A stretch of 64,000 nt of DNA from an uncultured Flavipsychrobacter sp. GTDB lineage: Bacteria > Bacteroidota > Bacteroidia > Chitinophagales > Chitinophagaceae. Where the stretch lies: the NCBI GenBank assembly GCA_964561325.1, contig CAZLPE010000001.1:286-64285 (forward strand), written 5' to 3'. Below the pieces are notes generated by a model. The model did not search any database and had not been told where the DNA came from. It saw only the letters and a list, made by a program, of their open reading frames with translations. The position numbers and the translations under genes are program-made. Positions 4,515 through 63,570 of the stretch are shown in pieces; within the stretch, counting starts at the first letter, position 1; each line of letters starts with the position of its first letter.

Positions 4515-5204
4515 ATGATATTGCAGCTACAAATTAAAATGAACCCCAAACTGTATGTCCGCGACCCGGAATCAACAGAATTGGGCAGAAACATCATTCG
4601 CTTAGGCATAGAGCTAATCAGCGAAATGGGGTTTGAAGAATTTACATTTAAAAAACTTGCTAACAAGATTGGCGCCACTGAAGCCAGCATATACAGGTAT
4701 TTTGAAAACAAACACCGATTACTAACCTATATTACTACCTGGTTCTGGACCTGGATGGAATATCAGTTGATATTTCATACAAACAATGTGAGCGATAGCA
4801 GAACAAAAATCAACACGATTGTCAACCTGCTGACTTTTCAGGAAAAAGATGAATTTTCTCTGGAACACATTGACAAATCGAACCTGCACAAGATCGTTGT
4901 TTCTGAAGGGGATAAATCTTACCTGACAAAGCATGTTACAGAAGACAATGCTGCAATGTTGTTTAAGCCCTATAAAGACCTATGCCACCGCATAGCGCAG
5001 ATTTTTTTAGAATACAACCCTACCTACAAGTTTCCACATTCACTTGCCAGCACGCTGATGGAAACAGCGCACCACCAGATATTTTTCATGAACAACTTGC
5101 CAAGAATGACAGATTTTGGAGGAATGAAAGATCCAAAACAACTAACGTCATTCCTACTACATATAGTGTTTAGCGCATTGGATGCAGCGAAAACCGAAAT
5201 GTGA
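4515..5204 (+). CDS. TetR/AcrR family transcriptional regulator
   Basis: HTH segment GFEEFTFKKLANKIGATEASIYRYFENK. Confidence 0.92.
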   Translation: MILQLQIKMNPKLYVRDPESTELGRNIIRLGIELISEMGFEEFTFKKLANKIGATEASIYRYFENKHRLLTYITTWFWTWMEYQLIFHTNNVSDSRTKINTIVNLLTFQEKDEFSLEHIDKSNLHKIVVSEGDKSYLTKHVTEDNAAMLFKPYKDLCHRIAQIFLEYNPTYKFPHSLASTLMETAHHQIFFMNNLPRMTDFGGMKDPKQLTSFLLHIVFSALDAAKTEM

Positions 5205-5239
5205 TAATCGGTTATTGTTAATAAACACAATCAGGTTAC

Positions 5240-6649
5240 TTAAAACAATATGCCGGCTGCCCACAACAAGCCGGCATAATTTTTATGCCATTTTGTTTTC
5301 AGTTCTATAACTTTTTGGGCTGTTTCCAGCACTTTCATTTCGCGGGAGTTGATCATAAACAATGAACTCTCGCCCAATTCAAATTTAAAACGCTCTGCAT
5401 CATACAATCTACGGTAGTTATCCAAAGCCTGTGCAAAATAGCGTGTTTGCTGCTGGCCGGCAGTCAGCTCATTAAAGTAACTTTTCACTTTGTTTTCTTG
5501 CTGCAATGCAATAAGCGACTGCTCCAGTTTTGTTTCCTGAATTTTTAGTTTTGAAGCCTTGTACGCGCCTCGAGCATCGCGCTGAAAAAGAGGCATATTA
5601 AACTCTACCCCCAATTTGTGGTTATTTTCCAGCAAAGGCATATTTATGTCTCCAGGAATTTTGTAGCCTTTACTTAGCATATTAGCGCTTAAACTCAATT
5701 TGGGCAACAACGACTGAGCCTTCAGGCGCTGCTCTATTTCCAGCGCATCCAGCTTAAAGCCTAAAGCCTGCAACTTAGGGTGGTTATCTATGGCAGAAAG
5801 AATAGTATCTATAAGCGGGAGCGCTATGTTATCGAAACCTTTTGCCACCTCTGTAGAATCGGGTGTCACCGTCGCACTCCAGTTGGCTGGCACATCGTTT
5901 TCCAACCAAAGAAAATTCGACATTTCCAGTCCCGCATTCATAAAGCCGTTCCAAGCTGCGCTCTGCAATGAATAGAGCGTTTGCAACTGAGCATTTGTCT
6001 CTACTGTGTCGAATCCCGGTCTGGCGCCTTGCTCATATTCTATTCTCACAAACCGTAGTCTTTGCTCGTTTGTGGAAATAAGACTACTTACTACCCTATA
6101 TACCTGGTACTCTTTTACCCAATTCCAATAAGCAGAAAGCGCATCATACAGCAGATTATTTACCGCCAGTTTGCGCTCGGCTTCACTCAGTTCAGATAAA
6201 GCCTGCGCCTGCCTCAATGCCGCTCTGCGTTTGTCGAACAATAGTCCGGTTACAGGAGCTTTTACACCAACAAAAGTAGTTTGCCCTAAAGTAGATTCTG
6301 AACTAACCCGTGTACCAATTATTTCTTCAGCTCCGGCTTTGAACTCTATTCCGTACCAAGTAGGTACTACTATTTCCGGCTTAAAATAGCTGTAATATAA
6401 TTTTCCATCAAAGGTTTTGCGATCCAGATTAGCGCTTAAAAAAGGATCGAATGCGCCGCGCGCCGACAAAACAGCCGCATTTGCCCTATCCACCTGCAAC
6501 TTAGCTTGCTTAACAACAGGATGATATGTTTTTATTATACTTAAAAACGCATCTTTTGTCATCACACGCGATGTATCGGCAGCGTAAGTGTTTGCAAAAA
6601 ACACAAGCGGTAAAAACAAAAGCGCCCACTTACTTCTTATATTGATCAT
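5240..6649 (-). CDS. TolC family outer-membrane channel
   Basis: Signal peptide from MINIRSK; coiled-coil repeats; GAFDP, HPKLQ and ERFKFELGESSLF motifs; follows the HlyD gene. Confidence 0.88.
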   Translation of the reverse strand: MINIRSKWALLFLPLVFFANTYAADTSRVMTKDAFLSIIKTYHPVVKQAKLQVDRANAAVLSARGAFDPFLSANLDRKTFDGKLYYSYFKPEIVVPTWYGIEFKAGAEEIIGTRVSSESTLGQTTFVGVKAPVTGLLFDKRRAALRQAQALSELSEAERKLAVNNLLYDALSAYWNWVKEYQVYRVVSSLISTNEQRLRFVRIEYEQGARPGFDTVETNAQLQTLYSLQSAAWNGFMNAGLEMSNFLWLENDVPANWSATVTPDSTEVAKGFDNIALPLIDTILSAIDNHPKLQALGFKLDALEIEQRLKAQSLLPKLSLSANMLSKGYKIPGDINMPLLENNHKLGVEFNMPLFQRDARGAYKASKLKIQETKLEQSLIALQQENKVKSYFNELTAGQQQTRYFAQALDNYRRLYDAERFKFELGESSLFMINSREMKVLETAQKVIELKTKWHKNYAGLLWAAGILF

Positions 6650-7937
6650 TTTTTTTCTCTTTTGCCTGATAAAAATCCGGAGGGAAACCATTGATGTTTC
6701 GCCATAACTCGTAAGCGACTGCAACATCCTTCAATAACATTATTCCCTCTGCTCCAATCCCCATTTTCAATGTCTTTGGCCATGGCTTATAGTTTTTGTC
6801 TTCAGCCACAAGTATCCTGAACTTACCATTTGTGCTTACCGAGCTCTCTATGGCCACTACCTGGCCGCTAAAAATACCATATGATGCCTGTGGCCAGCCG
6901 CTAAAAACTATAGCAGGAAAACCATCGAACAAAAACCTAACAGTTTGTCCTTTAGACAATAGTGGTAAATCTACAGGCCGTACAAAGATCTCCACCGCAT
7001 ATTCTACGTCCTGCGGCACTATTTCGGCTATTTTTTCGCCCTCTTTTACTATTTCATTCAATCCCGATTTTGAAGCCTGAACAATTTGGCCGCTTTGCGG
7101 AGCAAGCAAGTAGTACATACCATTCCTGATTGTGTAGTTTGCATACTGATTGCTCAGCTTGGCTATCTCGGCTCTGCCCGTAGCCATTTCACTTTGCGCA
7201 GCAGCCATTTCGCCTCTTGCTTTAAAGGTTTTTTCGGCATACTCCTGTCTTACCTGCAGCAATTCGGTACGAGTGTTGTTGTACTTCATTTCTGCCGATG
7301 TTTTTTTTGCCATTGCGCTTTGCCAGTACTGATTTTTTTGTTCTAACTGGGTTAGCGACGACAATCCGCTGTCGCGCATTACCCGCTGCCTGCGCAATTG
7401 CAGCTCGGCAATCTGCGCATCGTTGCGCGCAGATACTGCCTCCATACTATCGCTAACCACTTTTAGCGACAATTGCCTAAGCTTGTATTCCAAAGCCAAT
7501 TGCATTGCGTTTAGTTGGCTTTCGGTAGCTTTTACTTTATTACCGTAGTACCCGAGCCCATCCTTTTTTGCATTCAATTGCTCCTGAGTTCTATTAAGTA
7601 ATTCCGGGTCGAGGTATGCATCTTTTATTTCCGCAAGCCTGGCTATTGTGTCGCCTTCTTTAACAAAATCGCCCTCTTTTATGTACCATTTTACGATTTT
7701 ACCTGCAATAATTGAGTTGAGCTCTTGCGGTCTTTGCTCCTGACGTAATGTTGTTACATACCCTTTTGCGCGAATATTTTGCGTCCAGGGCAAACAAAGC
7801 ACAATAAAAAGGCCTATAAACGAACCTCCAACCCAATACCTTACCCGACTCTTGACACCCAAACGGTAAACTTGTTGAAAAGAGTTCAACTTGACATTAT
7901 TTGAATCTCGTTCAATTACAAATTGTATCTCCTTCAT
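6630..7937 (-). CDS. HlyD family membrane-fusion protein
   Basis: N-terminal TM helix, lipoyl-like GKIVKWYIKEGDFVKEGD segment, long coiled coil, APQSGQI and FDGFPA motifs. Confidence 0.9.
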   Translation of the reverse strand: MKEIQFVIERDSNNVKLNSFQQVYRLGVKSRVRYWVGGSFIGLFIVLCLPWTQNIRAKGYVTTLRQEQRPQELNSIIAGKIVKWYIKEGDFVKEGDTIARLAEIKDAYLDPELLNRTQEQLNAKKDGLGYYGNKVKATESQLNAMQLALEYKLRQLSLKVVSDSMEAVSARNDAQIAELQLRRQRVMRDSGLSSLTQLEQKNQYWQSAMAKKTSAEMKYNNTRTELLQVRQEYAEKTFKARGEMAAAQSEMATGRAEIAKLSNQYANYTIRNGMYYLLAPQSGQIVQASKSGLNEIVKEGEKIAEIVPQDVEYAVEIFVRPVDLPLLSKGQTVRFLFDGFPAIVFSGWPQASYGIFSGQVVAIESSVSTNGKFRILVAEDKNYKPWPKTLKMGIGAEGIMLLKDVAVAYELWRNINGFPPDFYQAKEKKNDQYKK

Positions 7938-7939
7938 GG

Positions 7940-9607
7940 TTATTTTTTTATAATTGATTTAATGGCGCCCTTCTCCATATATACTACCTTATCGCAACTA
8001 TTTGCAAAATTTTGGTCGTTACTTACTACTACTACAGTCTTGTCTTTTAGTGTATGCAGCAGGTAGTTTTTAATATTTTGAATATTTGGCTCCTCAAGAC
8101 CGAGCCAAGGCTCTTCGAGCAGTAGCAACTGCGGCTGATGTATCAATGCGCGCATTAGCAATATTTTCCTTACAATGCGTCCCGACAGATGCTGTCCAGT
8201 AGGTTGAAGGTAAAAATCATAACCTTCTTTATGGCTATCAACGAATTCGCGCAGCCCAACCAATTCAGCCAATTCATTCAGGTGTTGATAGGTAATCGTT
8301 TCGTCGCCTAAACAAATATTTTCTAATAGCGTTCCTTCCAGTATATCTTGAACGGTTAGTAAAATGCCCGTTTTTCGGCGTATTGAATCAATGTTATAGG
8401 TGGACAATGAAATACCATCGTAAAACAAGACACCGTCATAGGTAACGTACGCTCCGCTTAGTAGCTTTATTAGCGTAGACTTACCTGCGCTATACTCTCC
8501 CATTACGCATACTTTTTCTCCGCTTTCTATGTCGAGCGAAATGTTTTGTAATGCAAATTCTCCATCTGGATAAGTGTAGGTTACATTATTCGCCCTAATG
8601 GATATACCTTTTGCGCCCATAAACTGCAACTTTCCTGTTTCCTCTTTCGGTTTTTCTATCAATTTATTTATCTTTTCTACCGATGTCAATACGTCATAAA
8701 CCTTATCGAGATTTATTATTAGTTTCTCCACCGAGTCTATCACCATAAGGATTACCATTTCGGCAGCTATAAACTGACCAATATTCAACAACTGATTTAC
8801 CAACAGAAAAGCGCCTACAACCAGCATCGACATTACTATCAGCGACTTAAAAATGATCAGTGTCCAATATTGGAACAGTAGTATTTTAAAGTGCGCCGTA
8901 CGAGCTTTCAGATAGCCAGATACAAAATTGTCCATTTTAGTGAGGTGCGAAGAGCTGTTGCGCGTAAACTTGAAAGTAACCACTACTCTGGCAAGCTCTT
9001 GTATATAGCCAGCCACTTTATACTTATAATTACTTTCTTCAATGCTTGTTTCCAACCCGCGGTTTCCGGTAGTGCGCAATATGAGGAACAACACCGATAA
9101 TAACAACAGACCAAAAAATATAAAAATAGGATGATAAAAAGAAAGCAATAACAAGCCAAACAATATCTGGATTAACGCAGCGGGTATGTCTAAAAGGAGT
9201 TTTGAAATACCTTTTTGCAACGATACCGTATCGAAAAAACGATTTGATAATTCAGGTAGGTAGTAACCGTTTATAGATTGCAAATCGAGTTTGGGTATAG
9301 AAAAGGCATATTTGAACGAGTATCGAACAAACAATTGCTGTTCTATTTTTTCAATCAACTTCATTTTGTTCACTTGCAGCAACCCGGTTATTACAACCCC
9401 GGCTATTACCAATAAAATGAGTACAACCAGTGATGTAGAAATAGAACCACCAATAACGAAACTAATTATAGACTGTATACCCAAAGGCAATGACAACTGA
9501 ACTAAACCAGATAGAATTGCGTAGAAATAGATGGAAGTTATTTCAGACTTTTCGTACTGTAATACTTCCATCAATTTTCGAATAGTGTTTCCTTTGCTCT
9601 CGGCCAT
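7940..9607 (-). CDS. ABC exporter (TMD+NBD) of a type I secretion-like module, with a degenerate NBD
   Basis: Hydrophobic TMD followed by NBD: GEYSAGKS (Walker A), LSGRI (signature), LLLLEEP (Walker B), VVVSND (switch). Confidence 0.88.
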   Translation of the reverse strand: MAESKGNTIRKLMEVLQYEKSEITSIYFYAILSGLVQLSLPLGIQSIISFVIGGSISTSLVVLILLVIAGVVITGLLQVNKMKLIEKIEQQLFVRYSFKYAFSIPKLDLQSINGYYLPELSNRFFDTVSLQKGISKLLLDIPAALIQILFGLLLLSFYHPIFIFFGLLLLSVLFLILRTTGNRGLETSIEESNYKYKVAGYIQELARVVVTFKFTRNSSSHLTKMDNFVSGYLKARTAHFKILLFQYWTLIIFKSLIVMSMLVVGAFLLVNQLLNIGQFIAAEMVILMVIDSVEKLIINLDKVYDVLTSVEKINKLIEKPKEETGKLQFMGAKGISIRANNVTYTYPDGEFALQNISLDIESGEKVCVMGEYSAGKSTLIKLLSGAYVTYDGVLFYDGISLSTYNIDSIRRKTGILLTVQDILEGTLLENICLGDETITYQHLNELAELVGLREFVDSHKEGYDFYLQPTGQHLSGRIVRKILLMRALIHQPQLLLLEEPWLGLEEPNIQNIKNYLLHTLKDKTVVVVSNDQNFANSCDKVVYMEKGAIKSIIKK

Positions 9608-9751
9608 ATCAAATGCTATTTGCGACAAATATAGTAGCATTATTTTTCAAAATAATAGTAATGCTATCAAAATTCTGTTAAATACTATTTACGATAAAAG
9701 TCGGGCAGAAACCCGACTTTAACTATTCTTATTAACTATGGTACAATTTTT

Positions 9752-38064: not shown

Positions 38065-39624
38065 ATGCAACATCTCAAATATGCGCTATTTTCTGCATTT
38101 GCATTCGGCGCTATTTCGGTATCGGCTCAAGACCTTGCCGAGGCATATAATCTCTCTAATTTAAAAGTACAGGGCACAGCCCGCAGTATGGGCTTTGGCA
38201 ATGCTTTGGGCTCCGTTGGCGGCGACTTCAGCTCTATAAGCGTCAACCCGGCAGGTCTCGGCGTTTATCGCAGTTCCGAGCTAAGTTTCACATCTTCGCT
38301 CAGGGCCAACTCGGCTACAAGCCAATACCTTGGCACAGAAACAATGGACAATAACGTCCATTTCAATATCAACAACTTCGGACTGGTATTTACCAACGCG
38401 CCTAAAGGTAAACGCTATGATAAACGCGACTGGAAGACTGTATCGTTTGCATTTGGTATGAACCGAGTAGCCGATTTCAACAGAACATATACCTACACCG
38501 GTCGCAACAACAACAGCTCCGCAACACAAGTTTTTGAATCAGACGCCAATCAATATCCCAATTATACCGTAGGCACACAAAACGCAAATGGTTTAGGATA
38601 TATGGGTTATCAGGCATACCTTATAGATCAGGTAGCGACAGATAGATACAGATCTATTGTGCCCATAGCTGGCGGTATAAATCAGACTAAGAACATCAAA
38701 GAAAATGGCGGTATAAACGAATATGTAATAGCGCTTGGAGGCAACTATAAAGAAAAATTGATTCTCGGCGCCACCATAGGCTTGCCATCGTTCAATTATA
38801 CCCGCAAAAGCTATTATACCGAGACGCTCGCTCCCGGCAATAGCGGAAGCGGAGACACATCGGTGTTTTCCCGCATGAATTACGGAGAAACGCTCGACTT
38901 AACCGGCAATGGCATTAATCTTAAAATAGGCGCTATATACAAACTAAACGACTATTTCAGAGTTGGCGCTGCATTCCACTCCCCTACTTACTATACCATC
39001 ACTGATATTTATCGCCCTGAACTGACATCGGTAGTTAACAACAATATCTACAATCTTTCAGTTGGTAATGGTACGTTGATCGAAAATCAGTTCGACTACT
39101 TCCTGTCTACTCCATGGAAAAGTACTGTGAGCGCAACTTTCATCTACAAGAAGCTTGGATTTATTACAGCCGATCTTGAGTACGTAGACTATGCATCGGC
39201 ACGGTACACCTATCCCGATGGTATAGACAATGCTACAGGGCAAAGTTTTAGCGAGGAAGCCAACGCTAAAAATCAGCAAATAAGCAGTACTTACACTGGC
39301 GTTACCAACCTAAGGATAGGAGCGGAAGGTGTAATCAATAAATTCTTTATGCTTCGCGCAGGTTTTGGTTATTATGGCAACCCCTATAAGCAATCAGGTT
39401 ACGATGGTAGCCGTATGGATTTTTCTGGTGGACTCGGCTTTAGGTTCCAGCACTTCTTCGCCGACTTTGGCGTTGTACACACACAGTATAAAAGCACAGA
39501 AACACCATACAATATCGACTACAGCAATTCATCTGTCATTTCAGGGCCAGCCGTTGCAGCGCCTACAGCCTACAACACGTTCAAAGGCAATAACATTGCG
39601 CTGACTGTAGGATTGAAGTTTTAA
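38065..39624 (+). CDS. OmpP1/FadL/TodX family outer-membrane protein
   Basis: GTARSMGFGNALGSVGGDFSSISVNPAGLG N-terminus, beta-barrel, C-terminal VGLKF. Confidence 0.88.
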   Translation: MQHLKYALFSAFAFGAISVSAQDLAEAYNLSNLKVQGTARSMGFGNALGSVGGDFSSISVNPAGLGVYRSSELSFTSSLRANSATSQYLGTETMDNNVHFNINNFGLVFTNAPKGKRYDKRDWKTVSFAFGMNRVADFNRTYTYTGRNNNSSATQVFESDANQYPNYTVGTQNANGLGYMGYQAYLIDQVATDRYRSIVPIAGGINQTKNIKENGGINEYVIALGGNYKEKLILGATIGLPSFNYTRKSYYTETLAPGNSGSGDTSVFSRMNYGETLDLTGNGINLKIGAIYKLNDYFRVGAAFHSPTYYTITDIYRPELTSVVNNNIYNLSVGNGTLIENQFDYFLSTPWKSTVSATFIYKKLGFITADLEYVDYASARYTYPDGIDNATGQSFSEEANAKNQQISSTYTGVTNLRIGAEGVINKFFMLRAGFGYYGNPYKQSGYDGSRMDFSGGLGFRFQHFFADFGVVHTQYKSTETPYNIDYSNSSVISGPAVAAPTAYNTFKGNNIALTVGLKF

Positions 39625-43784: not shown

Positions 43785-45464
43785 ATGAATATATATATTG
43801 CCCAACAAAACTATCATATAGGTAATTTTGAAGCTAATACTGCAAAAATAATTGTTGCGATAGAGGAAGCTAAAGCCAATGGCGGCGACCTTATTGTTTT
43901 TTCTGAATTGGCCGTATGCGGATATCCGCCAAGAGATTTCTTGGAGTTTAATGACTTTATTGATCAATGCCAGAATGCCATTAAAGAAATAGCCAAACAT
44001 ACTACCACGATTGGCGTGATTGTAGGTTGCCCTACAAGAAATCCTAAATCAGAAGGTAAAGACCTTTTTAATAGCGCGTACTTGCTTCACGAAGGCACGA
44101 TAAAAGGAGTATGCCACAAAACACTACTCCCTACCTACGATATTTTTGACGAATACAGATACTTTGAACCCGCATACGAATGGAATGTGTTGGAATTCAA
44201 AGGAATGAAACTGGCAGTAACCATATGCGAAGATATCTGGAATCTGGGCGACAACCCACTGTACCGCATTTGCCCAATGGATGTGCTTGCTTTGCAACAG
44301 CCAGATATAATGATAAACCTGAGCGCATCGCCATTTGATTACTTACACGCAAGCGACAGAAAGGAAATAGTAAAGGCAAATGCGCTTAAGTATGGACTAC
44401 CTATTGTGTATTGCAACACCACGGGCTCGCAAACAGAAATTGTTTTCGACGGAGGCTCGTTGGCTGCTACTGCCGATGGCGCTATTATTTGTGAAATGCC
44501 TTACTTCAGCGAAAGCCTGCAAAAGGTAATATGGACGGGTAATACCTTGGAAGCAGACATAACGCAAAGCGCAAACACTAACGTTCAAAAGAACACAAAC
44601 GAAGCAGACGTGCTGTATGCCGAACTGAACACAGATAAAATACATCTGGCTCTGTTATCTGGCATCAGGGATTATTTTGGCAAAATGGGCTTTAAAAAGG
44701 CAATTGTCGCATCTTCAGGCGGCATAGACAGCGCGGTGGTACTTGCGCTTGCCTGCGAAGCCTTAGGGCCTGAAAATGTAACGGCGCTGCTCATGCCGTC
44801 CCAATTTTCAACTGGTCACTCGGTTAGCGATGCTGTACAGCTTTCCCGCAACTTGAACAACCATTATGAACTTATAGCCATCAAGCCTATTTTTGACGCC
44901 TACGAGACCGCTCTACAACCAGCATTTAAAGACCTTCCGTTTAATGTTGCGGAAGAAAACCTGCAATCGCGTATACGCGGAGGCCTTGTTATGGCTATGG
45001 CCAATAAATTTGGCTACATACTCCTTAATACCTCCAATAAAAGCGAACTGGCCACGGGATATGGCACATTGTATGGCGACATGGCTGGCGGCTTAGGCGT
45101 ATTGGGCGATCTGTACAAAGTACAGGTATATGCCATGGCTCGGTATTTAAACCGAAATGGTGAAATAATACCGCAAAACATAATAGACAAAGCCCCTAGC
45201 GCCGAACTGAGAGACGGGCAAAAAGACAGCGACAGCCTACCCGACTATGGCGTGCTCGACCCGATATTGTATCAGTATATAGAACGTAGAAAAGGTCCAA
45301 AAGACATCATAGATATGGGCAACGACCCTGCTCTGGTAAATCGCATTTTGAAGCTTGTAAACAATAACGAATACAAGCGCAATCAATTTTGCCCGATAAT
45401 CAGGGTGTCGCCAAAGGCATTTGGCATTGGTCGCAGAGTGCCAATTGTAGGAAAGTACCTTTAG
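43785..45464 (+). CDS. nadE: Glutamine-dependent NAD+ synthetase
   Basis: Nitrilase triad (ELAV, KTLLP, ICEDIW) plus SSGGIDSA, NLQSRIRG, NKSE and PSAELR motifs. Confidence 0.96.
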   Translation: MNIYIAQQNYHIGNFEANTAKIIVAIEEAKANGGDLIVFSELAVCGYPPRDFLEFNDFIDQCQNAIKEIAKHTTTIGVIVGCPTRNPKSEGKDLFNSAYLLHEGTIKGVCHKTLLPTYDIFDEYRYFEPAYEWNVLEFKGMKLAVTICEDIWNLGDNPLYRICPMDVLALQQPDIMINLSASPFDYLHASDRKEIVKANALKYGLPIVYCNTTGSQTEIVFDGGSLAATADGAIICEMPYFSESLQKVIWTGNTLEADITQSANTNVQKNTNEADVLYAELNTDKIHLALLSGIRDYFGKMGFKKAIVASSGGIDSAVVLALACEALGPENVTALLMPSQFSTGHSVSDAVQLSRNLNNHYELIAIKPIFDAYETALQPAFKDLPFNVAEENLQSRIRGGLVMAMANKFGYILLNTSNKSELATGYGTLYGDMAGGLGVLGDLYKVQVYAMARYLNRNGEIIPQNIIDKAPSAELRDGQKDSDSLPDYGVLDPILYQYIERRKGPKDIIDMGNDPALVNRILKLVNNNEYKRNQFCPIIRVSPKAFGIGRRVPIVGKYL

Positions 45465-55281: not shown

Positions 55282-56505
55282 TTATTTTCCTTTCAAAGCA
55301 AGTTTAGTTTTTCTCGCAAGCGCCACTACCCTGCTTTTCATAACTCCGGCTAATGGTAAACTGTATGCGGCAGTAGTATGGCTTTTAAAATTTATTCCTT
55401 TTACCACATTCATGTATCTTGCAAGACATACACTCATACTAAATTCATTTTCAGCAAGTTGTCTTGCTGAGTTCCTTCTAAATTGAGAAGGTATTGCGGA
55501 GAGTTTTACAATTTTATCGGCGGCATCTTCAATATCGCCAACTTGAAAAATCTTCAAACAGTTTTCGGCGTATGGGTGATGTTCATAGTCTTCTATTCCG
55601 CTTACCCTTGTGCCTACCATTCCGCAACCAGCCCCAAGCGCTTCCATCATGGCGATGGGGGTTCCCTCAAAATCAGAAGTCATTAACAGCATGTCTGCAT
55701 TGGCAAGAAATCCGGCTACTTCAGCCTGTGTGCGCCACCCCCTAAACGATATACTTTGCTGTAATCCAGCGGCTTCAACTCCGGCCATAAGTCCGGGTTT
55801 TGCATCTCCGTCGCCAATAATATCCAGATGAAATTGCACTTTCTTATTTACCAGTAGCTGCGCAATTTTCAGCAAATCGCCGGCGCGCTTTTGATACACG
55901 CTCACTCTGCCGGCATAAACAAGCCTAATAATGCCATCGGCATGTTCGATTTTATTTAGCGTAGGTAATTTTATTCCGCAAGGTATTGTGTGCACCAGCG
56001 CTGGCGACAATTCCGGAATTTTACTTAGCAGCGTAGCGCATACCCTTTTTGAAACACAAACTATAGCCGCAAGTTTTTTATAATGCTCAGCGGCAATATT
56101 GTAGTAGTAGGGTTCGTCTGCATGCAAAACTGCGATAATTGGGTATGTTTTATGGAAATATGTCCCGGCCATCCATACAGAAGCATCATCAGACAAAATG
56201 ATAGGAACGCCGGCTGGTAACTTTTGTATAAGTTGTGCATAAACGGAAACCCGGTATTCTGGCGTGCCGAACTCGAATTCATACCCTGCTTGCGCAGTAT
56301 GAATCTGAACATTATTCTTGCTTTGCGTTAGCAATTGCACCATCGACTCCCTACCCTTTGCGGAAACAAACTCCCTAACAGGATCGACAGTTATGAAATG
56401 TACTTCAAGACCCAATTTTGCGTACTCCAACGCAGCATCGGCCATCCATCTGGTTACCCCGCCCCTATGGTAGGGGTGACATAAAAAAGCTATTTTTTGA
56501 CTCAA
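55282..56505 (-). CDS. GT4 family (GT-B) glycosyltransferase
   Basis: HRGGV N-terminal loop, YAGRVSVYQKR, IIGDG and SDFEGTPIAMMEA (EX7E) motifs. Confidence 0.9.
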   Translation of the reverse strand: MSQKIAFLCHPYHRGGVTRWMADAALEYAKLGLEVHFITVDPVREFVSAKGRESMVQLLTQSKNNVQIHTAQAGYEFEFGTPEYRVSVYAQLIQKLPAGVPIILSDDASVWMAGTYFHKTYPIIAVLHADEPYYYNIAAEHYKKLAAIVCVSKRVCATLLSKIPELSPALVHTIPCGIKLPTLNKIEHADGIIRLVYAGRVSVYQKRAGDLLKIAQLLVNKKVQFHLDIIGDGDAKPGLMAGVEAAGLQQSISFRGWRTQAEVAGFLANADMLLMTSDFEGTPIAMMEALGAGCGMVGTRVSGIEDYEHHPYAENCLKIFQVGDIEDAADKIVKLSAIPSQFRRNSARQLAENEFSMSVCLARYMNVVKGINFKSHTTAAYSLPLAGVMKSRVVALARKTKLALKGK

Positions 56506-56544: not shown

Positions 56545-56729
56545 ACACCATAAGCTGGAAACAGATCAAGTTTTGTTGCTCAAAACTGATTTGTTTATTC
56601 TGACAAACAAATTCATCCTTTATAATTCGGTTTGAAAGCCGCGGCCGAGCGCCAATTGGCGAGTAAGGCATTAACATTCGATTCAAACACTAATGCATAC
56701 GCATAACGTTATAGACAAAAAATTATGGC

Positions 56730-56737
56730 TATATTTG
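56730..56737 (+). promoter_or_regulatory. -7 element for the RRE-B2 genes
   Basis: TATATTTG followed by CAG. Confidence 0.6.
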
Positions 56738-56783
56738 CAGGTTCAATCCCTATCTTCTATTGAAAACTTACACATACCTGTAA

Positions 56784-57101
56784 ATGACGACAACGAAAGA
56801 TTGCATGAGCTATAACGCCGATATAAGATTAAGCACCATAATAAAGCGAAACGAAGCCAAATTTCTTGCCAACAAACTGGGTGATGAAATGGTGATGATG
56901 AATATGGAAAACGGCGATTTTATTACTATGAACAATGTTGGCGCTGATATATGGGAACTTACAAACGAACCTATTAGCGTAAGCGACCTAATAAATAAAC
57001 TGCTTAACCTCTACAATACAACCGGTCCTCAGTGTGAAGCTGAAACAATTGATTTTTTAAACCATGCATCTGAACAAAAAATATTCACGTTTATACAATA
57101 A
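56784..57101 (+). CDS. PqqD-family RiPP recognition element (lasso B1-like)
   Basis: LGDEMVMMNMENGDFITMNNVGADIWEL...ISVSDLINKLLNLY...CEAETIDFL pattern; 105 aa. Confidence 0.88.
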   Translation: MTTTKDCMSYNADIRLSTIIKRNEAKFLANKLGDEMVMMNMENGDFITMNNVGADIWELTNEPISVSDLINKLLNLYNTTGPQCEAETIDFLNHASEQKIFTFIQ

Positions 57102-57107
57102 TATACT

Positions 57108-57563
57108 GTGAGTATAGGTAGTATTTTGGTTAGAAAAACATCGAGTTTCGCTTCAATTCCCGGGCGTGAAAAAGCGTTGTTTTTAGAAGCCATAATCACC
57201 GCATTTTATGTAAAGCTAACGCTGTTATTACTGCCATTCAACCGTGTTGCCCGTTGGCTGGGGCAACCGATATCGGACCCGCTTGATGAAACGACTTTGG
57301 AAGGCGCAAATACCGCAAAGAAAATAAAATTTGCACTACAACTTTGCGAACGATACACACCCTGGCGTCTGGAATGCTATACGTTGGCTGTAACGGGTAA
57401 AATACTGCTGAACAGGAGGAAAGAAAAAGGAATTTTATACTTCGGTTTCTGTAAGGCTGCCGACGGCAAACTAAAGGGGCATGCATGGCTGAAGCGGTCG
57501 GGGGTGATAGTAAGCGGCGGCAGCAATTATGTAGATTTTCAGATTCATTCTGCATTTGTATAA
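57108..57563 (+). CDS. Lasso B2-like transglutaminase-fold leader peptidase
   Basis: GTG start; PWRLECYTLA (catalytic Cys), LYFG, GHAWL (catalytic His) and VSGG motifs. Confidence 0.88.
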   Translation: MSIGSILVRKTSSFASIPGREKALFLEAIITAFYVKLTLLLLPFNRVARWLGQPISDPLDETTLEGANTAKKIKFALQLCERYTPWRLECYTLAVTGKILLNRRKEKGILYFGFCKAADGKLKGHAWLKRSGVIVSGGSNYVDFQIHSAFV

Positions 57564-57592
57564 CACATTGCCTACTAAAACAATCAACTTTT

Positions 57593-57600
57593 TACATTTG
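57593..57600 (+). promoter_or_regulatory. -7 element for kinase-sulfotransferase
   Basis: TACATTTG, 19 nt before the ATG at 57620. Confidence 0.55.
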
Positions 57601-57619
57601 CACACTACAATAGCCCATA

Positions 57620-58519
57620 ATGTATAAATACCTCGGATTTGGATTGCATATTGCCAGCGAAATTGAATGTCCCGAACTGTTGCCGTCTGATTTCGAGCAT
57701 GCGGATATTACATTCACTATTGGTAAAACGCCGAACCAAATAGTCAATGAGGATGATGCCAAAATTCCGTTTTCAAGCATAAATAAAAACGAATACCTTC
57801 TCGATATACAGAATATTTGCAAATACTATGCTGCGTTTGGCACAACTATCGTGGCAGAACCTGCCGATGGCACTGACGAGCGCAGTATTCGGCTTTTTGG
57901 GTTAGGCGTAGTTATGGCTGCTATACTTTACCAACGCAATCTTATTCCTTTGCACGCTTCAGCTATATTGAAAGATGGCAAAATAGCGCTGTTCACCGGC
58001 AATTCGGGCGCAGGCAAATCAACATTGATTGCGCATCTGATTACAAAAGGTTATCAAATTTTCACCGACGACATTTGTGTGCTCACCAAAAACGACAATA
58101 ATAATATTCTTGGAGCGGCCTCGTACCCAATGATAAAGCTTTGGGACGACGCTGTAGAGGAGTTGGACAACGACCGGTTTACACTCGACTTTAAGGTGCG
58201 ACCCAAGTTGCCTAAATATGGGCAGTTCTTTCATGATAGTTTTGATACTGCTGCCTACCCTATCTCAAAAATATTTGTGCTGAACCCCGACAAAAACGCT
58301 ACCGCGATCAGTGTAAAACAAATTAAAGCTGCGCAAGCATTTAAACTACTTGAGCAACAAACCTACAAGAATCACCTGATAACCAATCAAAAAACACGCG
58401 CATATCATTTTTCGGTATTGTTGCAACTTGCACAGACTACGCCTGTATATGAAATTACCCGCCCTGTTGTGGGTGCGCCTGTATCTATGTTGTTAGCAGC
58501 AATACGTGATTTAATATGA
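57620..58519 (+). CDS. HPr-kinase-related kinase (lasso-cluster PadeK-like)
   Basis: LHASA, P-loop GNSGAGKST, TDD and YPMIKLW motifs. Confidence 0.85.
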   Translation: MYKYLGFGLHIASEIECPELLPSDFEHADITFTIGKTPNQIVNEDDAKIPFSSINKNEYLLDIQNICKYYAAFGTTIVAEPADGTDERSIRLFGLGVVMAAILYQRNLIPLHASAILKDGKIALFTGNSGAGKSTLIAHLITKGYQIFTDDICVLTKNDNNNILGAASYPMIKLWDDAVEELDNDRFTLDFKVRPKLPKYGQFFHDSFDTAAYPISKIFVLNPDKNATAISVKQIKAAQAFKLLEQQTYKNHLITNQKTRAYHFSVLLQLAQTTPVYEITRPVVGAPVSMLLAAIRDLI

Positions 58520-59379
58520 AGGCTACTGACCCAAAGTTTCGTAATAAAATCATGTGGCTTGCATCTTATCCAAAATCAGGAAATACATGGATGAGAGCCT
58601 TTGTTTCGGCGCTGATAGATAACGGAAAGGTAGATTTAAACAATCTCAAATCAGACGGCATCTTTTCATCGCGCGCAATTTTTGAACGTATAACAAACAT
58701 AGATTCCCGCGACCTGTATGACGATGAAGCAAAAGCAATGATGGCCGATGTATATACTCGTTTTGCTTTAAATCGCGATGAGCTAAGCATAATAAAGGTG
58801 CATGATGCTTATGAGAATGACAGCTATAACAAACCTATAATTCCTGTCCATGTTACCTATTGTGCCATTTATATCATTCGTAATCCACTCGACATAGCCG
58901 GGTCGCTGTCAAGCCACATGAAAATAAGCCTTGACGATGCTGTATCGATGCTCAATAACCCAGATGCTTGTATTGCTTGTCAACCCAACAATCTGAATAA
59001 AAATAATCAGTTCAGGCAGCATTTATCCGACTGGTCGGGACATGTAAAGAGCTGGACCGAAAACGCGCCATTGCCCGTGCATATTATACGCTACGAAGAC
59101 ATGGTCGATAGCCCGAACTCAATTTTCACAAAACTATTGAATGAAATAGGTTGGCAATTTACGGATGAACTTATCGACAAAGCTATAACGGCTACAAATT
59201 TTCAGGAGCTGCGCAAACTGGAAGAATCGAGAGGATTTGCAGAAATGGACGTTCCCGGAAGGAGGTTTTTCCGGGCCGGCAAAACCGGAAACTGGAAGAA
59301 TGAACTTAATAGCCGACAGATTGAAGCTATAACAGACAAACACAATGCTTTGATGAAACAATACGGCTATCTGCCCTAA
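58516..59379 (+). CDS. PAPS-dependent sulfotransferase (Sulfotransfer_1 type)
   Basis: 5'-PSB WLASYPKSGNTW, 3'-PB YIIRNPLD..S, RYED and FFRAGKTGNW motifs; ATGA overlap with the kinase. Confidence 0.92.
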   Translation: MKATDPKFRNKIMWLASYPKSGNTWMRAFVSALIDNGKVDLNNLKSDGIFSSRAIFERITNIDSRDLYDDEAKAMMADVYTRFALNRDELSIIKVHDAYENDSYNKPIIPVHVTYCAIYIIRNPLDIAGSLSSHMKISLDDAVSMLNNPDACIACQPNNLNKNNQFRQHLSDWSGHVKSWTENAPLPVHIIRYEDMVDSPNSIFTKLLNEIGWQFTDELIDKAITATNFQELRKLEESRGFAEMDVPGRRFFRAGKTGNWKNELNSRQIEAITDKHNALMKQYGYLP

Positions 59380-59426: not shown

Positions 59427-60119
59427 ATGGAACAGTTACTAATACTACACGGGGCAATAGGTTCGGCAACCCAAATGGCTCCTATAGCCAACCGATTTAA
59501 GACAGCCTTCGATGTGTTGTTGTTTAATCTTTACGGACACGGCGGAAAACCTATTGACAACCGACCTTTTAGTATTCCGCTATTCGCTAATGAAGTATTG
59601 TCGTTTTTAGACGAAAACAACATAGCTAATATCTCCATATTCGGTTATAGTATGGGCGGTTATATAGCCTTATACCTTGCCAAGCATCACCCGGATAGGA
59701 TTTCGCGCATAGTGACACTTGCCACAAAATTTGACTGGAATGAACAGATTGCGGCCAAAGAAATTCAAATGTTGAATCCTGAAAAAATAGCTATCAAACT
59801 ACCTGCTTTTGCCAATACGCTTGCCGAGCGTTTCGCACCTGCAGACTGGAAACAGGCATTGCAAAAAACTGCAGATATGATGGTGGAGCTTGGCGTTGAT
59901 AATACGTTGAAAACCAATGATTATGCTGATATAGCCACACCCGTATTGGTGCTGTTGGGTGACAGAGATAAGATGGTATCTTTAGATGAAACACTGTCGG
60001 TTTACAAGTCTTTACCCAATGCGCAGCTCGGTATACTGCCCAATACGCATCACCCAATAGAGCAGGTAGACGCTGATCTTCTATTTGCAATGTCGGCAAC
60101 GCTATTATTAAAAAAGTAG
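59427..60119 (+). CDS. Alpha/beta hydrolase
   Basis: LHG oxyanion motif, GYSMGG nucleophile, GDRD acid and THH His. Confidence 0.9.
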   Translation: MEQLLILHGAIGSATQMAPIANRFKTAFDVLLFNLYGHGGKPIDNRPFSIPLFANEVLSFLDENNIANISIFGYSMGGYIALYLAKHHPDRISRIVTLATKFDWNEQIAAKEIQMLNPEKIAIKLPAFANTLAERFAPADWKQALQKTADMMVELGVDNTLKTNDYADIATPVLVLLGDRDKMVSLDETLSVYKSLPNAQLGILPNTHHPIEQVDADLLFAMSATLLLKK

Positions 60120-60223: not shown

Positions 60224-61015
60224 ATGAGATTCACAGACAAGCTTATCGCAACAATAAAAAAGGCATACGAACACTATGCAGTTCATAAAAACCGCCAATA
60301 TCTGGATTTGAGAGAACTCATAAACTCAGCCGACATTGTTACCGACAATGAGGAAGTTGTGAACCTTGGGAAACGCTTGGAAGGCGATGGCTTAGTAATA
60401 TTCCATCTTAAATACGGCAAATACGGCACTCCGCATATATATTTAACAAGCGATGGTATAGACAAATGCGAAAGCGGAGTGCTTTTTGACGTGGAGACTA
60501 TCCTGCCAGATACCGAACCCGCAATAACAGTAAACACTGCGCCAGCCAACGACCAACCGACAAGCGCCGACGAAATTAAGCATATTGTTACACCGGAAAT
60601 CATGGAGCCGGAAATGGTGAATGATGTACTACCACCTGTAAAAATATCTGAGCCACTGGAGATAGAGCATAAAAAAGCGGATAGTGGAACTGGTAAACCA
60701 GTTGCAAACAACTCAGAAAATTTGATAGAAAATAAACCTGTACCGGAGCCTTCGGTGGCGCCTATAGATGCAAACAGTCAAAGATCGGCAACGTTTTTAG
60801 AATTACTACATGAAATTAAGGTAGCTGCTTCGCTCAATGAAGATTTGAGAGTTAGGGAAGTAAAAGAATTGATGGAACGCATAGAAGAAATAAGCGTTTA
60901 TATAAAAGCTCAAAACAAAATACCAAAATATGGCTTCAATGACTTTTTACTTTTTATGAATGAAATCGAGCCCATGGATAATTTTATACCGCGACTAGAA
61001 AAATTCCTTTCTTAA
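60224..61015 (+). CDS. Hypothetical protein: possible winged-helix N-terminus, acidic Pro-rich linker, helical C-terminus
   Basis: Long open ORF with its own TACATTTG box (60189-60196) and downstream terminator; LEGDGLV...YLTSDG resembles a wHTH wing. Confidence 0.7.
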   Translation: MRFTDKLIATIKKAYEHYAVHKNRQYLDLRELINSADIVTDNEEVVNLGKRLEGDGLVIFHLKYGKYGTPHIYLTSDGIDKCESGVLFDVETILPDTEPAITVNTAPANDQPTSADEIKHIVTPEIMEPEMVNDVLPPVKISEPLEIEHKKADSGTGKPVANNSENLIENKPVPEPSVAPIDANSQRSATFLELLHEIKVAASLNEDLRVREVKELMERIEEISVYIKAQNKIPKYGFNDFLLFMNEIEPMDNFIPRLEKFLS

Positions 61016-61036
61016 TAATTCTATTTTCTTAACTGT

Positions 61037-61079
61037 TTTGCCAGAAGTAATATGCACCAAACACATTGCTTCTGGCAAA
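61037..61079. terminator. Hairpin after the 60224 gene
   Basis: tttgccagaagtaat...attgcttctggcaaa. Confidence 0.6.
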
Positions 61080-61116
61080 TTACTTTTAGGATACAGGTTG
61101 CAGAGGTATAAATATA

Positions 61117-61133
61117 TTACCTTTGAAAGGTAA
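61117..61133 (+). promoter_or_regulatory. -7 element embedded in a perfect inverted repeat
   Basis: TTACCTTT-G-AAAGGTAA contains TACCTTTG at 61118-61125. Confidence 0.5.
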
Positions 61134-61189
61134 CTTTTAAGAAAAGAGGCATCCCAAATCAGGGCGTTCACGAAAACCCTCGCAATTCC

Positions 61190-62785
61190 ATGTCTAATAC
61201 CAAGATACAGCAAGCATTTTTGTACTTTCTTGTAATGCCAGTAGTCATTTATTGCTACTTTCTAAAATGGAAGACGGTAACTATATATGGCGACGACCTT
61301 TACGTATACAAAGATTATTTTGACGCGGGTAAGCATATTGCAAAGTGTAACATGTCGACGATATACGAAAAATACCGACCTGTGCATGATATTGTGGTTG
61401 ACCTACTGATTAGGATTTTCAACAAACGCATAGAGTGGTATTATGTGTTTAATGTCGCAATACAAACCATTAATGCCGTAATTTTTGCACGCATTGCGTT
61501 AGTTTTCATCCGTTCGGTATATCTATCGGCTATTTTGGGGCTTATGGTGGGTATATCAAGGTTTTCTTACTACAATATCTCTCAACTATTTAATGGCGGT
61601 GCGCTGGAAGGTCTGGCTATGACATTTTTTTTACTGACATTATTTACCACCGTTAGGGCGCTTACCGGTGAACGTCCAACTGAGAAGATTGTATGGAACA
61701 ACGCACTTTTAAGCCTGCTTTTTGCAAACCTCAGCCTTTATACCCACGAACGGTACATAGTCATATTGCCCTTTATATTTCTGGTATTTTCTTTAACCAA
61801 CCGTTTCAGAATATTACCACTTAGGCGAAGAATTGACCTCAGTTTTTTGGTATTTGTATCGCTGACACTCAATGTAGTTATCAAGAAGTTAGTGTTTTCA
61901 ATGCCATTTTTTGTTGGTACCGGCGGATCTAAAATTGAGTTTTCAATAGAGCGCGCAGTGGGTTACCTGCACGATGGATTATTGTCGATACTCCAAATCA
62001 ACTCTGGACCCGATTATCTGTCAGGAGCGCATTTTAATAGTTTACCTGCATTTAATAAGTTCCTTGTTGAGCTTGTAGTCGTTACGGTTGGAGTAGTTTT
62101 CCTAATCAAGATTGCCCTACTTGTAAAGACGCTATTGCAAAAAAACATAACAGATGATGAGCAAAAATCAAGACAATTCACCACTTCGCCCAACACTTTG
62201 ATACTCTTGCTTATCTGCCTCTTCTTTTTGTTTCTTCTTCCAGCTATTGTAACCATACGCTTAGAGCAGCGCTGGCTGCAAGCATCTTACAGTATATTCT
62301 TACTGATTGTAGTAATAGCCGTGAGCGATATAAAAATTAATGTTGCCAAATGGGCTGTATTTACCCTGACACTAATATCTGGCATAGCTCTGTTCAACGA
62401 TTTTCAGTACCTGTACAGAGGCATTCCCTACTTGTACCTTACCGGCGCTCAAAATGCAGCCACACTTTTCGAAAAAGGACTAAAAAATGAGGCAATCAGG
62501 CCAAACGCACGAAAAATATACATTGTAGAAAAAGTGCGGAATGAAAATGATGAAAACGGATTAATATGGGCAATAGGAAACGGATATCTTATCCGTTTTT
62601 ACAAAGACACCACTAAAACCATTGCTTTTGTGGATTCTGTATACCAGCGCACCACATCGGCAACCGATACCACATTCAAAAACTACAATCCCGAAAAAGA
62701 GGAGATTATCTTACTAAAAGATCAAGTAATAGACCTAACTAAGCAATATAAACTGGATACACTACGAACAATAAAATTCGACTAA
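61190..62785 (+). CDS. Polytopic membrane protein, probable GT-C glycosyltransferase
   Basis: YGDD in the first loop, YRP motif, more than 10 TM segments and a soluble C-terminal domain. Confidence 0.6.
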   Translation: MSNTKIQQAFLYFLVMPVVIYCYFLKWKTVTIYGDDLYVYKDYFDAGKHIAKCNMSTIYEKYRPVHDIVVDLLIRIFNKRIEWYYVFNVAIQTINAVIFARIALVFIRSVYLSAILGLMVGISRFSYYNISQLFNGGALEGLAMTFFLLTLFTTVRALTGERPTEKIVWNNALLSLLFANLSLYTHERYIVILPFIFLVFSLTNRFRILPLRRRIDLSFLVFVSLTLNVVIKKLVFSMPFFVGTGGSKIEFSIERAVGYLHDGLLSILQINSGPDYLSGAHFNSLPAFNKFLVELVVVTVGVVFLIKIALLVKTLLQKNITDDEQKSRQFTTSPNTLILLLICLFFLFLLPAIVTIRLEQRWLQASYSIFLLIVVIAVSDIKINVAKWAVFTLTLISGIALFNDFQYLYRGIPYLYLTGAQNAATLFEKGLKNEAIRPNARKIYIVEKVRNENDENGLIWAIGNGYLIRFYKDTTKTIAFVDSVYQRTTSATDTTFKNYNPEKEEIILLKDQVIDLTKQYKLDTLRTIKFD

Positions 62786-63570
62786 ACTGCATCGTTGCCT
62801 TTTATCACATTCAACATTTGCTCATGAATTAGTCCATTTGTAGCAAGGGTTTGTTTTTCAAAAACATTGTAAGGCAATCCATCAAAATCAGTTATTCTAC
62901 CGCCGGCTTCTTGTACTATCAGGTATCCTGCGCCTACGTCCCAAGCGCTTAAATTATATTCCCAAAAACCGTCAAATCTGCCGCAAGCTACCCAACACAG
63001 ATCTATCGCTGCCGAACCAAGGCGCCGCACGGGCAACCCTTCCAACACAATACGTTCAAAAACCTTGATTGGGTGTTCTTTGCTATCTTCAGGCCATTTA
63101 TAAGGAAAACCGGTAACAAGGCAGGCAGTCTTAAAATCGGCTTTGGCCGATACGGAAATAGGGTTTCCATTCAATGTAGCGCCCTTGCCCTTTTCTGCAA
63201 AAAACAGCTCATCCATCATTGGGTTGAAGACCGCCCCTAATATCAATTCATTTTTATACAACAGTCCTATGCTGACACAACATATAGGAATACCGTGCGC
63301 AAAATTAACAGTACCATCTATAGGATCAATAAGCCACTGATAATCAGACGCTTGTATCATCTCTCCTACCTCTTCGCTTATGATCGTATGATCCGGGTAT
63401 GATGCTTTGATAATTTCAATAATCTTGTCCTCGGCATGATTATCTACCTCAGTCACTAAATTATTGATACCTGTTTTATGGTCTATTTTGAATACCCCGT
63501 TAAAATAATGCAATATTATTTTACCAGCTTCTTTTGTTGCGTGGAGTAATACCTCTTTCAATCCGTCCAT
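62782..63570 (-). CDS. suhB: Inositol monophosphatase family protein (SuhB type)
   Basis: LVTEVD, SEE, DPIDGTVNFAHG, RRLGSAAIDL and WDVGAG motifs. Confidence 0.9.
   Translation of the reverse strand: MDGLKEVLLHATKEAGKIILHYFNGVFKIDHKTGINNLVTEVDNHAEDKIIEIIKASYPDHTIISEEVGEMIQASDYQWLIDPIDGTVNFAHGIPICCVSIGLLYKNELILGAVFNPMMDELFFAEKGKGATLNGNPISVSAKADFKTACLVTGFPYKWPEDSKEHPIKVFERIVLEGLPVRRLGSAAIDLCWVACGRFDGFWEYNLSAWDVGAGYLIVQEAGGRITDFDGLPYNVFEKQTLATNGLIHEQMLNVIKGNDAV

Follow-up and report, generated by a model that had tools for sequence, protein, structure and literature searches.

What does a set of lasso-peptide maturation genes do at a locus with no cyclase and no precursor? This question is raised by a cassette of four genes at positions 56784-59379 of a 64-kb stretch of uncultured Flavipsychrobacter DNA (contig CAZLPE010000001.1; hereafter the window). 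From a comparison with related loci, which are labeled Lnnn below, we conclude that the cassette is probably the trans-acting maturation half of a paeninodin-like, kinase-containing lasso pathway that is split over two loci in the Chitinophagales/Sphingobacteriales. The cassette genes are as follows, where PAPS stands for 3′-phosphoadenosine 5′-phosphosulfate and RRE for the recognition element of peptides that are ribosomally synthesized and modified post-translationally (RiPPs):

56784..57101, + strand: B1, a PqqD-type RRE (leader-binding chaperone) of 105 aa (PF05402)
57108..57563, + strand: B2, a transglutaminase-like Cys/His leader peptidase of 151 aa with a GTG start (NF033537, PF13471)
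57620..58519, + strand: putative HprK-related (PadeK-like) peptide kinase of 299 aa (sub-threshold HprK-type models, P-loop)
58516..59379, + strand: PAPS-dependent sulfotransferase of 287 aa (PF00685)

The initial annotation had described four co-directional genes with intact motifs, and its boundaries hold: all four open reading frames (ORFs) are intact on the + strand, and the family models and invariant catalytic residues agree with the assignments. B1 ends 6 nt before B2 and B2 56 nt before the kinase gene, whose last 4 nt (ATGA) are shared with the sulfotransferase gene; this spacing suggests that the four genes form one operon.

B1 scores 52 bits against PF05402 (Pfam cut-off 23) and 62 bits against NF033536 (lasso_PqqD_Bac), under the cut-off of 80 set for that model. 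Its top match in the PDB is 9x90_B, a 'lasso peptide biosynthesis PqqD family chaperone' (E 6e-13), with TbiB1 (E 2e-5) next, and its ATG start and first codons are kept in L004, the closest relative of the window locus. B2 reaches 63 bits against the NCBIfam equivalog domain NF033537 (lasso_biosyn_B2, cut-off 33) and 58 bits against PF13471. In an alignment of 18 family members, the catalytic Cys (..LEC-YT) and His (GHAWL) are invariant; the third triad position varies throughout the family, complete clusters included.

The kinase falls below the cut-offs of all curated HprK-related models (42 vs. 200 bits for TIGR04352 HprK_rel_A, 28 vs. 33 bits for PF07475), is also sub-threshold to TIGR04249 (ScmC), and matches HPr kinases in the PDB at E 5e-4. 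It keeps all 43 columns that are invariant in 23 homologues, including the P-loop GNSGAGKST (G127-T135), D150-D151 and H112. The sulfotransferase scores 93 bits against PF00685 (cut-off 22), and its translation carries the PAPS-binding motifs of the Sulfotransfer_1 family, YPKSGNTW (5′-phosphosulfate-binding motif, 5′-PSB) and IIRNPLD (3′-phosphate-binding motif, 3′-PB). Its matches in the PDB include cytosolic sulfotransferases (SULTs) and the glycopeptide-antibiotic enzymes Teg12, Teg14 and StaL (E about 1e-12). Like the window enzyme, the latter three are bacterial PAPS-dependent members of Sulfotransfer_1, and they act on peptide natural products; identity to them is low.

We searched the window for the missing partners. 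In tblastn with four lasso cyclases (including P0130, described below; E≤5), no cyclase or relic of one was found in the 64 kb, the best hit having an E of 0.6. A Pfam scan of 28 larger ORFs of the window returned housekeeping functions only and no Asn_synthase domain, and the sole related enzyme among them is a housekeeping glutamine-dependent NAD synthetase (43785-45464). For the precursor, a hidden Markov model (HMM) trained on 30 precursors from related clusters was run on all six frames. This model recovers approximately 43 precursors in related loci at E<0.01, mostly at 1e-10 to 1e-17, and its best score in the window was E 13. A regular expression for W..P with a C-terminal Ser found no precursor in the window either.

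A 40-aa ORF at 56693 was considered as a precursor and rejected, as its L004 version stops after 9 codons. The DNA there is conserved and contains TAnnTTTG, and the reading frame is not kept, so this segment is more likely a promoter. The absence of a cyclase from the 64 kb and of a local precursor, both claimed in the initial annotation, is thus borne out. Two features that define a lasso cluster, the cyclase and a precursor with Gly/Ser at position 1 and Asp/Glu at positions 7-9, are lacking at the window locus, and therefore we file it as part of a lasso cluster and not as a complete member.

The relatives of the kinase place the cassette in a family. At E≤1e-5 we collected 614 kinase homologues, almost all with PF27840 and nearly all in lasso contexts; the named homologues and the genome loci (50 were retrieved with the kinase) belong mostly to Chitinophagales and Sphingobacteriales. 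In about 29 related loci, the gene right after that of the kinase encodes the sulfotransferase. In L003/L016, L005, L011 and L012, a small ORF and a cyclase gene come right after PqqD-B2-kinase-sulfotransferase, on the other strand. An ATP-binding cassette (ABC) exporter and NTP_transf_5 often accompany the operon in the nearest cyclase-bearing relatives, as do a formyltransferase-like gene and three genes with a Collar domain.

The small ORFs form one precursor family, with the leader KKxWxxPxhxxIS and a core that starts with G or S and has Asp/Glu at about position 8. In linear lasso precursors, the C-terminal Ser is the residue to which homologues of HPr kinase add phosphate (PMC8498205), and the Ser that ends 28 of the 30 family precursors fits this published activity. 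Mucilaginibacter paludis DSM 18603 (L001) has two kinase-sulfotransferase-precursor-cyclase sets and a single B1/B2 pair, which implies that B1/B2 already serve more than one locus within the family.

The most informative relative is L004, from the freshwater metagenome-assembled genome (MAG) KTt_bin-1606 (ENA ERZ1426853), the kinase of which is 81% identical to that of the window. Gene order is the same in both: ABC_transp_aux, purD, a family-4 glycosyltransferase (GT4), the four cassette genes, a hydrolase, two genes of no assigned family, an inositol-phosphatase and OEP. Within ±10 kb of L004 there is likewise no cyclase or precursor. Searching with the L005 cyclase, which comes from the nearest relative to have one, we found the cyclase P0130 on a 112-kb contig of ERZ1426853. 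The genes there run NTP_transf_5 (-), ABC exporter (-), cyclase (+) and a 49-aa ORF (+). No B1, B2, kinase or sulfotransferase gene occurs in the P0130 neighborhood. The L004 cassette and the P0130 locus complement each other exactly with respect to the canonical cluster. Identity of P0130 to the cyclases is 56-58% for those same relatives that show 55-62% in the kinase, and its phylogenetic placement accordingly agrees.

Three other split pairs were found. In the isolate Mucilaginibacter sp. PPCGB 2223, a cassette in the order kinase-sulfotransferase-B2-PqqD (L030, MDJS01000003) and a cyclase (L055, MDJS01000005) lie on different contigs. In the Joint Genome Institute (JGI) sample 3300081887, L002 holds the cassette, a precursor with the core GGHGGGAEVTTAHS, a membrane protein, an ABC gene and NTP_transf_5, with no cyclase; L064, another long contig, holds a methyltransferase, a cyclase and a paralogous precursor with the core GGHGSSAELNTAHS, and the tetranucleotide correlation of the two is r 0.89. 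In L006 and L009, the bare four-gene cassette stands beside an arginine operon amid housekeeping genes. The exact L009 kinase is present in assembly ERZ27313602 (L063), which also contains the orphan locus L062 with NTP_transf_5, ABC, a membrane protein, SET, a methyltransferase, a cyclase and a 62-aa precursor ending in Ser; L009 and L062 correlate at r 0.97 in tetranucleotide composition. As a side observation, an Asp/Asn beta-hydroxylase-family gene lies divergently from PqqD in L009 (3591-4313, -) and in L063 (1-76), and it may be an extra tailoring enzyme of this type of cassette.

When the kinases are placed in a neighbor-joining tree, cassettes lacking a cyclase appear at five or more separate positions, every one of them nested within relatives that have a linked cyclase. 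This polyphyly points to repeated cluster fission and not to a distinct cyclase-free lineage. An alignment revealed no distinctive sequence change in the B2 of the cyclase-less cassettes. Of the two alternatives put forward in the initial annotation, the comparative evidence thus favors a lasso pathway split across loci. The same annotation had named a complete cyclase and precursor elsewhere in the genome, with relatives keeping them adjacent, as the mark of an ordinary split cluster and as a refutation of a new system. The relatives largely bear this mark: precursor and cyclase adjoin the operon in L003/L016, L005, L011 and L012, and the L004 MAG has a cyclase and a small ORF on another contig.

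If the pathway is split in this manner, it would start from a remote precursor of about 45-60 aa with the leader KKxWxxPxhxxIS, G or S at the start of the core, Asp/Glu at about position 8 and a C-terminal Ser. The PqqD RRE would bind the leader, and the HprK-like kinase would phosphorylate the linear precursor, most likely at the C-terminal Ser. The sulfotransferase would then move sulfate from PAPS to a hydroxyl before B2 removes the leader. A remote Asn-synthetase-like cyclase, which would adjoin the precursor, an ABC exporter and an NTP_transf_5 nucleotidyltransferase, would finally close the ring, and the remote ABC transporter would export the product. The order of these steps is modeled on paeninodin biochemistry.

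The closest characterized systems are paeninodin (padeA-C-B1-B2-D-K, Paenibacillus dendritiformis) and the polyphosphorylated lasso peptides, which like the window have a split B protein and, putatively in the case of the window, an HPr-kinase homologue. The family precursors also end in Ser, the residue that such kinases phosphorylate (PMC8498205). Unlike the paeninodin cluster, the window locus has no cyclase, precursor or exporter and belongs to a Chitinophagales-like member of the Bacteroidota, its sulfotransferase gene is translationally coupled to the kinase gene, and its kinase is under the HprK-related cut-offs; the kinase biochemistry was established for enzymes of Firmicutes and Proteobacteria (PMC8498205). 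The complete Bacteroidota clusters (for example L001; the Flavipsychrobacter MAG locus L003/L016; the Sphingobacteriales MAG locus L011) share the four-gene order at 40-55% identity per protein. They differ from the window in having the precursor and cyclase downstream, an ABC exporter, NTP_transf_5, a formyltransferase-like gene, three Collar genes and sometimes PAPS-synthesis genes.

In pseudomycoidin of Bacillus pseudomycoides, a kinase and a nucleotidyltransferase yield a phospho-glycosylated lasso peptide (PMC8498205). The pairing of kinase and NTP_transf_5 recurs throughout the present family and at the second locus of the sister genome, whereas the window has no nucleotidyltransferase and has GT4 instead. 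Citrulassin, whose peptidyl-arginine deiminase is encoded outside the cluster (PMC8498205, PMC12971885), is a precedent for a remote gene in a lasso pathway. There only a tailoring enzyme is remote; here, in contrast, the essential leader-recognition and leader-peptidase genes are parted from the cyclase and precursor. In the literature searched, we found no characterized sulfated lasso peptide, no description of Bacteroidota kinase/sulfotransferase clusters, no remote B1/B2 lasso genes and no isolated product of this Bacteroidota family.

Several points weigh against a split pathway. The cyclase/precursor locus of the window's organism is inferred from the sister genome and was not seen. P0130 is paired with L004 through MAG binning, and for two of the other pairs the basis is that both loci come from one metagenome, together with their composition. 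In the protein collection, where the window's organism is represented only by short, low-coverage Logan contigs, P0130 had no match exceeding 58% identity, and the 1e-100 cut-off used would hide fragments. A scan of JGI metagenomes with P0130 returned only a 50% relative, L056, which is itself a complete cluster. Furthermore, in at least one relative the cyclase seems to have been truly deleted on the spot (L026 compared with L025), so that loss with no second locus may occur in this family, and L023 and L027 also have no cyclase; no RNA run holding the cassette was found.

The last of these loci lead to the alternative that survives best, although we regard it as unlikely: the cassette may be a remnant whose cyclase and precursor were lost, leaving four genes that have no current substrate and have not yet decayed. 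Local cyclase loss does occur in the family (L026 vs. L025; L023 and L027 keep the precursor only), and the island evolves faster than its flanks. From GT4 to the gene of a 531-aa protein, the island is 54-86% identical to L004 and the flanking genes are 93-98% identical; within it, GT4 is 79-81% identical and PqqD, the best conserved gene, 86-92%. Faster evolution of this kind is typical of accessory metabolism.

The gene sequences themselves argue against a remnant. The four ORFs are intact in the window, in L004 and in three further metagenome assemblies, and the catalytic residues are kept. Between the window and L004, the nonsynonymous divergence (dN) of PqqD, B2, kinase and sulfotransferase is 0.07, 0.28, 0.13 and 0.23, respectively, and the synonymous divergence (dS) is saturated (≥1 or undefined). 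Low dN with saturated dS places omega well below 1, as an upper-bound argument only, and the genes appear to be under purifying selection. The three further assemblies (L054, L057 and L058, from wastewater and freshwater metagenome runs) carry the cassette at 99-99.9% identity to the window, with 16 synonymous and 7 non-synonymous changes and no indels across the four genes, and they independently confirm contiguity from GT4 through the gene of a 263-aa protein. Nonsynonymous change is thus well below synonymous change. The arrangement is older than the split between the window and L004, and the saturated dS means that there was ample time for decay; the sister genome, moreover, holds the complementary locus.

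A decidedly unlikely possibility, which supposes that the window's organism has no lasso cyclase at all, is a free-standing leader-guided system, perhaps with GT4, that releases a linear peptide carrying phosphate and/or sulfate, or in a milder form a cassette that acts as a shared hub for several remote precursor loci, its fission being selected. We rate as slightly more improbable still the other alternative of the initial annotation, a cyclase-independent RiPP-like system in which the leader is bound and clipped and a linear peptide or protein, phosphorylated and sulfated, is the end product. It would account for 64 kb with neither cyclase nor precursor, for the bare cassettes among housekeeping genes in L006 and L009 and for purifying selection on the cassette, and published kinases of this type do act on linear precursors (PMC8498205). 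What disfavors it is the matching orphan cyclase, small ORF and exporter of the sister genome, the co-occurrence of the L009-type cassette with the orphan cyclase locus L062, the polyphyly of the cyclase-less cassettes with their unremarkable B2, and the lasso-type cores, with Asp/Glu at about position 8, of all family precursors found. Finally, recruitment to a local substrate, such as the 263-aa protein (60224-61015) or a cell-envelope component with GT4 and the 531-aa protein, is highly improbable: GT4, the hydrolase, the 263-aa protein and the membrane protein do share one fast island with the cassette in the window and L004, but these neighbors, except GT4, are absent from every other cassette locus, the precursor HMM detects nothing leader-like in the 263-aa protein, and GT4 also occurs inside complete lasso clusters.

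The features around the cassette are the following:

55282..56505, - strand: GT4, divergent from B1 (PF13692, PF00534)
56672..56783, + strand: conserved block before B1, predicted operon promoter and 5′ untranslated region (UTR), from the window/L004 alignment
59427..60119, + strand: alpha/beta hydrolase, 47 nt past the sulfotransferase gene (PF00561, PF12697)
60224..62785, + strand: genes of a 263-aa protein and of a 531-aa multi-pass membrane protein, both of no assigned family, in the fast island

Homologues of GT4 (51-54% identity) sit divergently beside the PqqD gene in the complete lasso clusters L015 and L047, and for this reason GT4 is probably a tailoring enzyme of the same pathway. 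In the intergenic region before B1, the window and L004 are near-identical over 56672..56783 and the remaining DNA has diverged. TAnnTTTG is the known -7 consensus of Bacteroidota promoters, and such an element, TATATTTG, lies at 56730-56737, 47 nt ahead of the PqqD start. Judging from this consensus, the block is the probable promoter and 5′ UTR of the operon. A sigma-70 promoter and terminator scan was uninformative for a Bacteroidota genome such as this.

Downstream, the hydrolase is syntenic only in L004, L054 and L058 and has no homologue in other lasso loci, and its membership in the pathway is uncertain. Neither the 263-aa nor the 531-aa protein has a Pfam or NCBIfam match, and they are 54% and 66% identical to their L004 counterparts, respectively. 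The 263-aa protein has a Pro/Glu-rich middle and occurs only in the window, L004 and L054; its gene is the fastest-evolving of the island, with 10 synonymous and 10 non-synonymous differences to a 99%-identical strain. Compared pair by pair with membrane proteins from other clusters (mem344, PMT_2), the 531-aa protein resembles none of them. The two genes are at most candidate members of the pathway.

An inositol-monophosphatase/CysQ-family gene (62782-63570, -) abuts the island. CysQ-type enzymes clear 3′-phosphoadenosine 5′-phosphate (PAP), which PAPS-dependent sulfotransferases release as a by-product. The gene is as conserved (93%) as the flanking core genes, and its adjacency may therefore be coincidental. 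At 5240-9640 (-), approximately 47 kb from the cassette, OEP/TolC-like, HlyD-like and 566-aa ABC proteins make up a tripartite exporter. Identity of this ABC protein to the ABC exporter of the L003 lasso cluster is 31% and confined to the ATPase part. We also noticed a multi-pass membrane protein of approximately 340 aa, without a Pfam family, that travels with the clusters at 66-69% identity across these loci:

L002, 12104-13138: membrane protein of about 340 aa
L013, 7354-8370: the same protein
L047, 789-1793: the same protein
L062, 7090-8106: the same protein

In L002 it takes the place of the cyclase. In the window it has a weak tblastn match (E 0.005) inside an unassigned 519-aa ORF (38065-39624).

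Related clusters showed further variations in gene content. L023 (10917-11600, Chitinophaga sp. YR573) and L027 (10941-11600, C. oryziterrae) have a precursor ending in ..LGLGGAGTDFASEQS and no cyclase; they also hold NTP_transf_5, ABC, PqqD, kinase, B2, formyltransferase and three Collar genes. In the sister Chitinophaga loci L032, L034, L035, L040, L043 and L044, the cyclase lies between B2 and the precursor, and in the two isolate genomes it was either deleted or relocated. In Mucilaginibacter, a cyclase segment of about 4.5 kb (~11780-16350 in L025) is gone from L026, where B2 directly follows the sulfotransferase; this looks like a recent deletion or relocation. L007 (9316-13425) has two PqqD genes, one upstream of the kinase gene with no B2 between them and the other by the precursor, cyclase and B2, an arrangement in which each RRE may have its own partner, the kinase in one case and the peptidase in the other.

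Three tandem phage-tail-Collar-domain genes (PF07484), with no obvious role in lasso biosynthesis, recur beside the clusters (L001, L003/L016, L011, L024, L027, L031, L032, L034-L036, L040, L041, L043-L045 and L052), together with the formyltransferase-like gene except in L024 and L031. PAPS-synthesis genes (adenosine phosphosulfate (APS) kinase, CysD/CysN-like) occur in L001 and L003. L015, whose cluster already has a cyclase, carries a second Asn-synthetase-like gene (5019-6965, 648 aa) just upstream of NTP_transf_5, 26% identical to the lasso cyclase.

Taken together, the apparent anomaly of a cyclase-less B1/B2/kinase/sulfotransferase operon is removed, as the operon is best read as half of a two-locus cluster. 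The novelty is organizational and modest: the locus belongs to an uncharacterized Bacteroidota subfamily of a known pathway class. Clusters of this Bacteroidota family have come apart repeatedly (five independent cases or more) into one module for maturation and another with cyclase, precursor and exporter, and mining tools that need co-localized genes could miss or mis-score both halves. Such split clusters imply that B1, B2, the kinase and the sulfotransferase work in trans. The family is common in Chitinophagales and Sphingobacteriales of freshwater, wastewater and soil, and with its kinase, coupled sulfotransferase, nucleotidyltransferase and glycosyltransferases, it could plausibly yield phospho-, sulfo- or glyco-lasso peptides.

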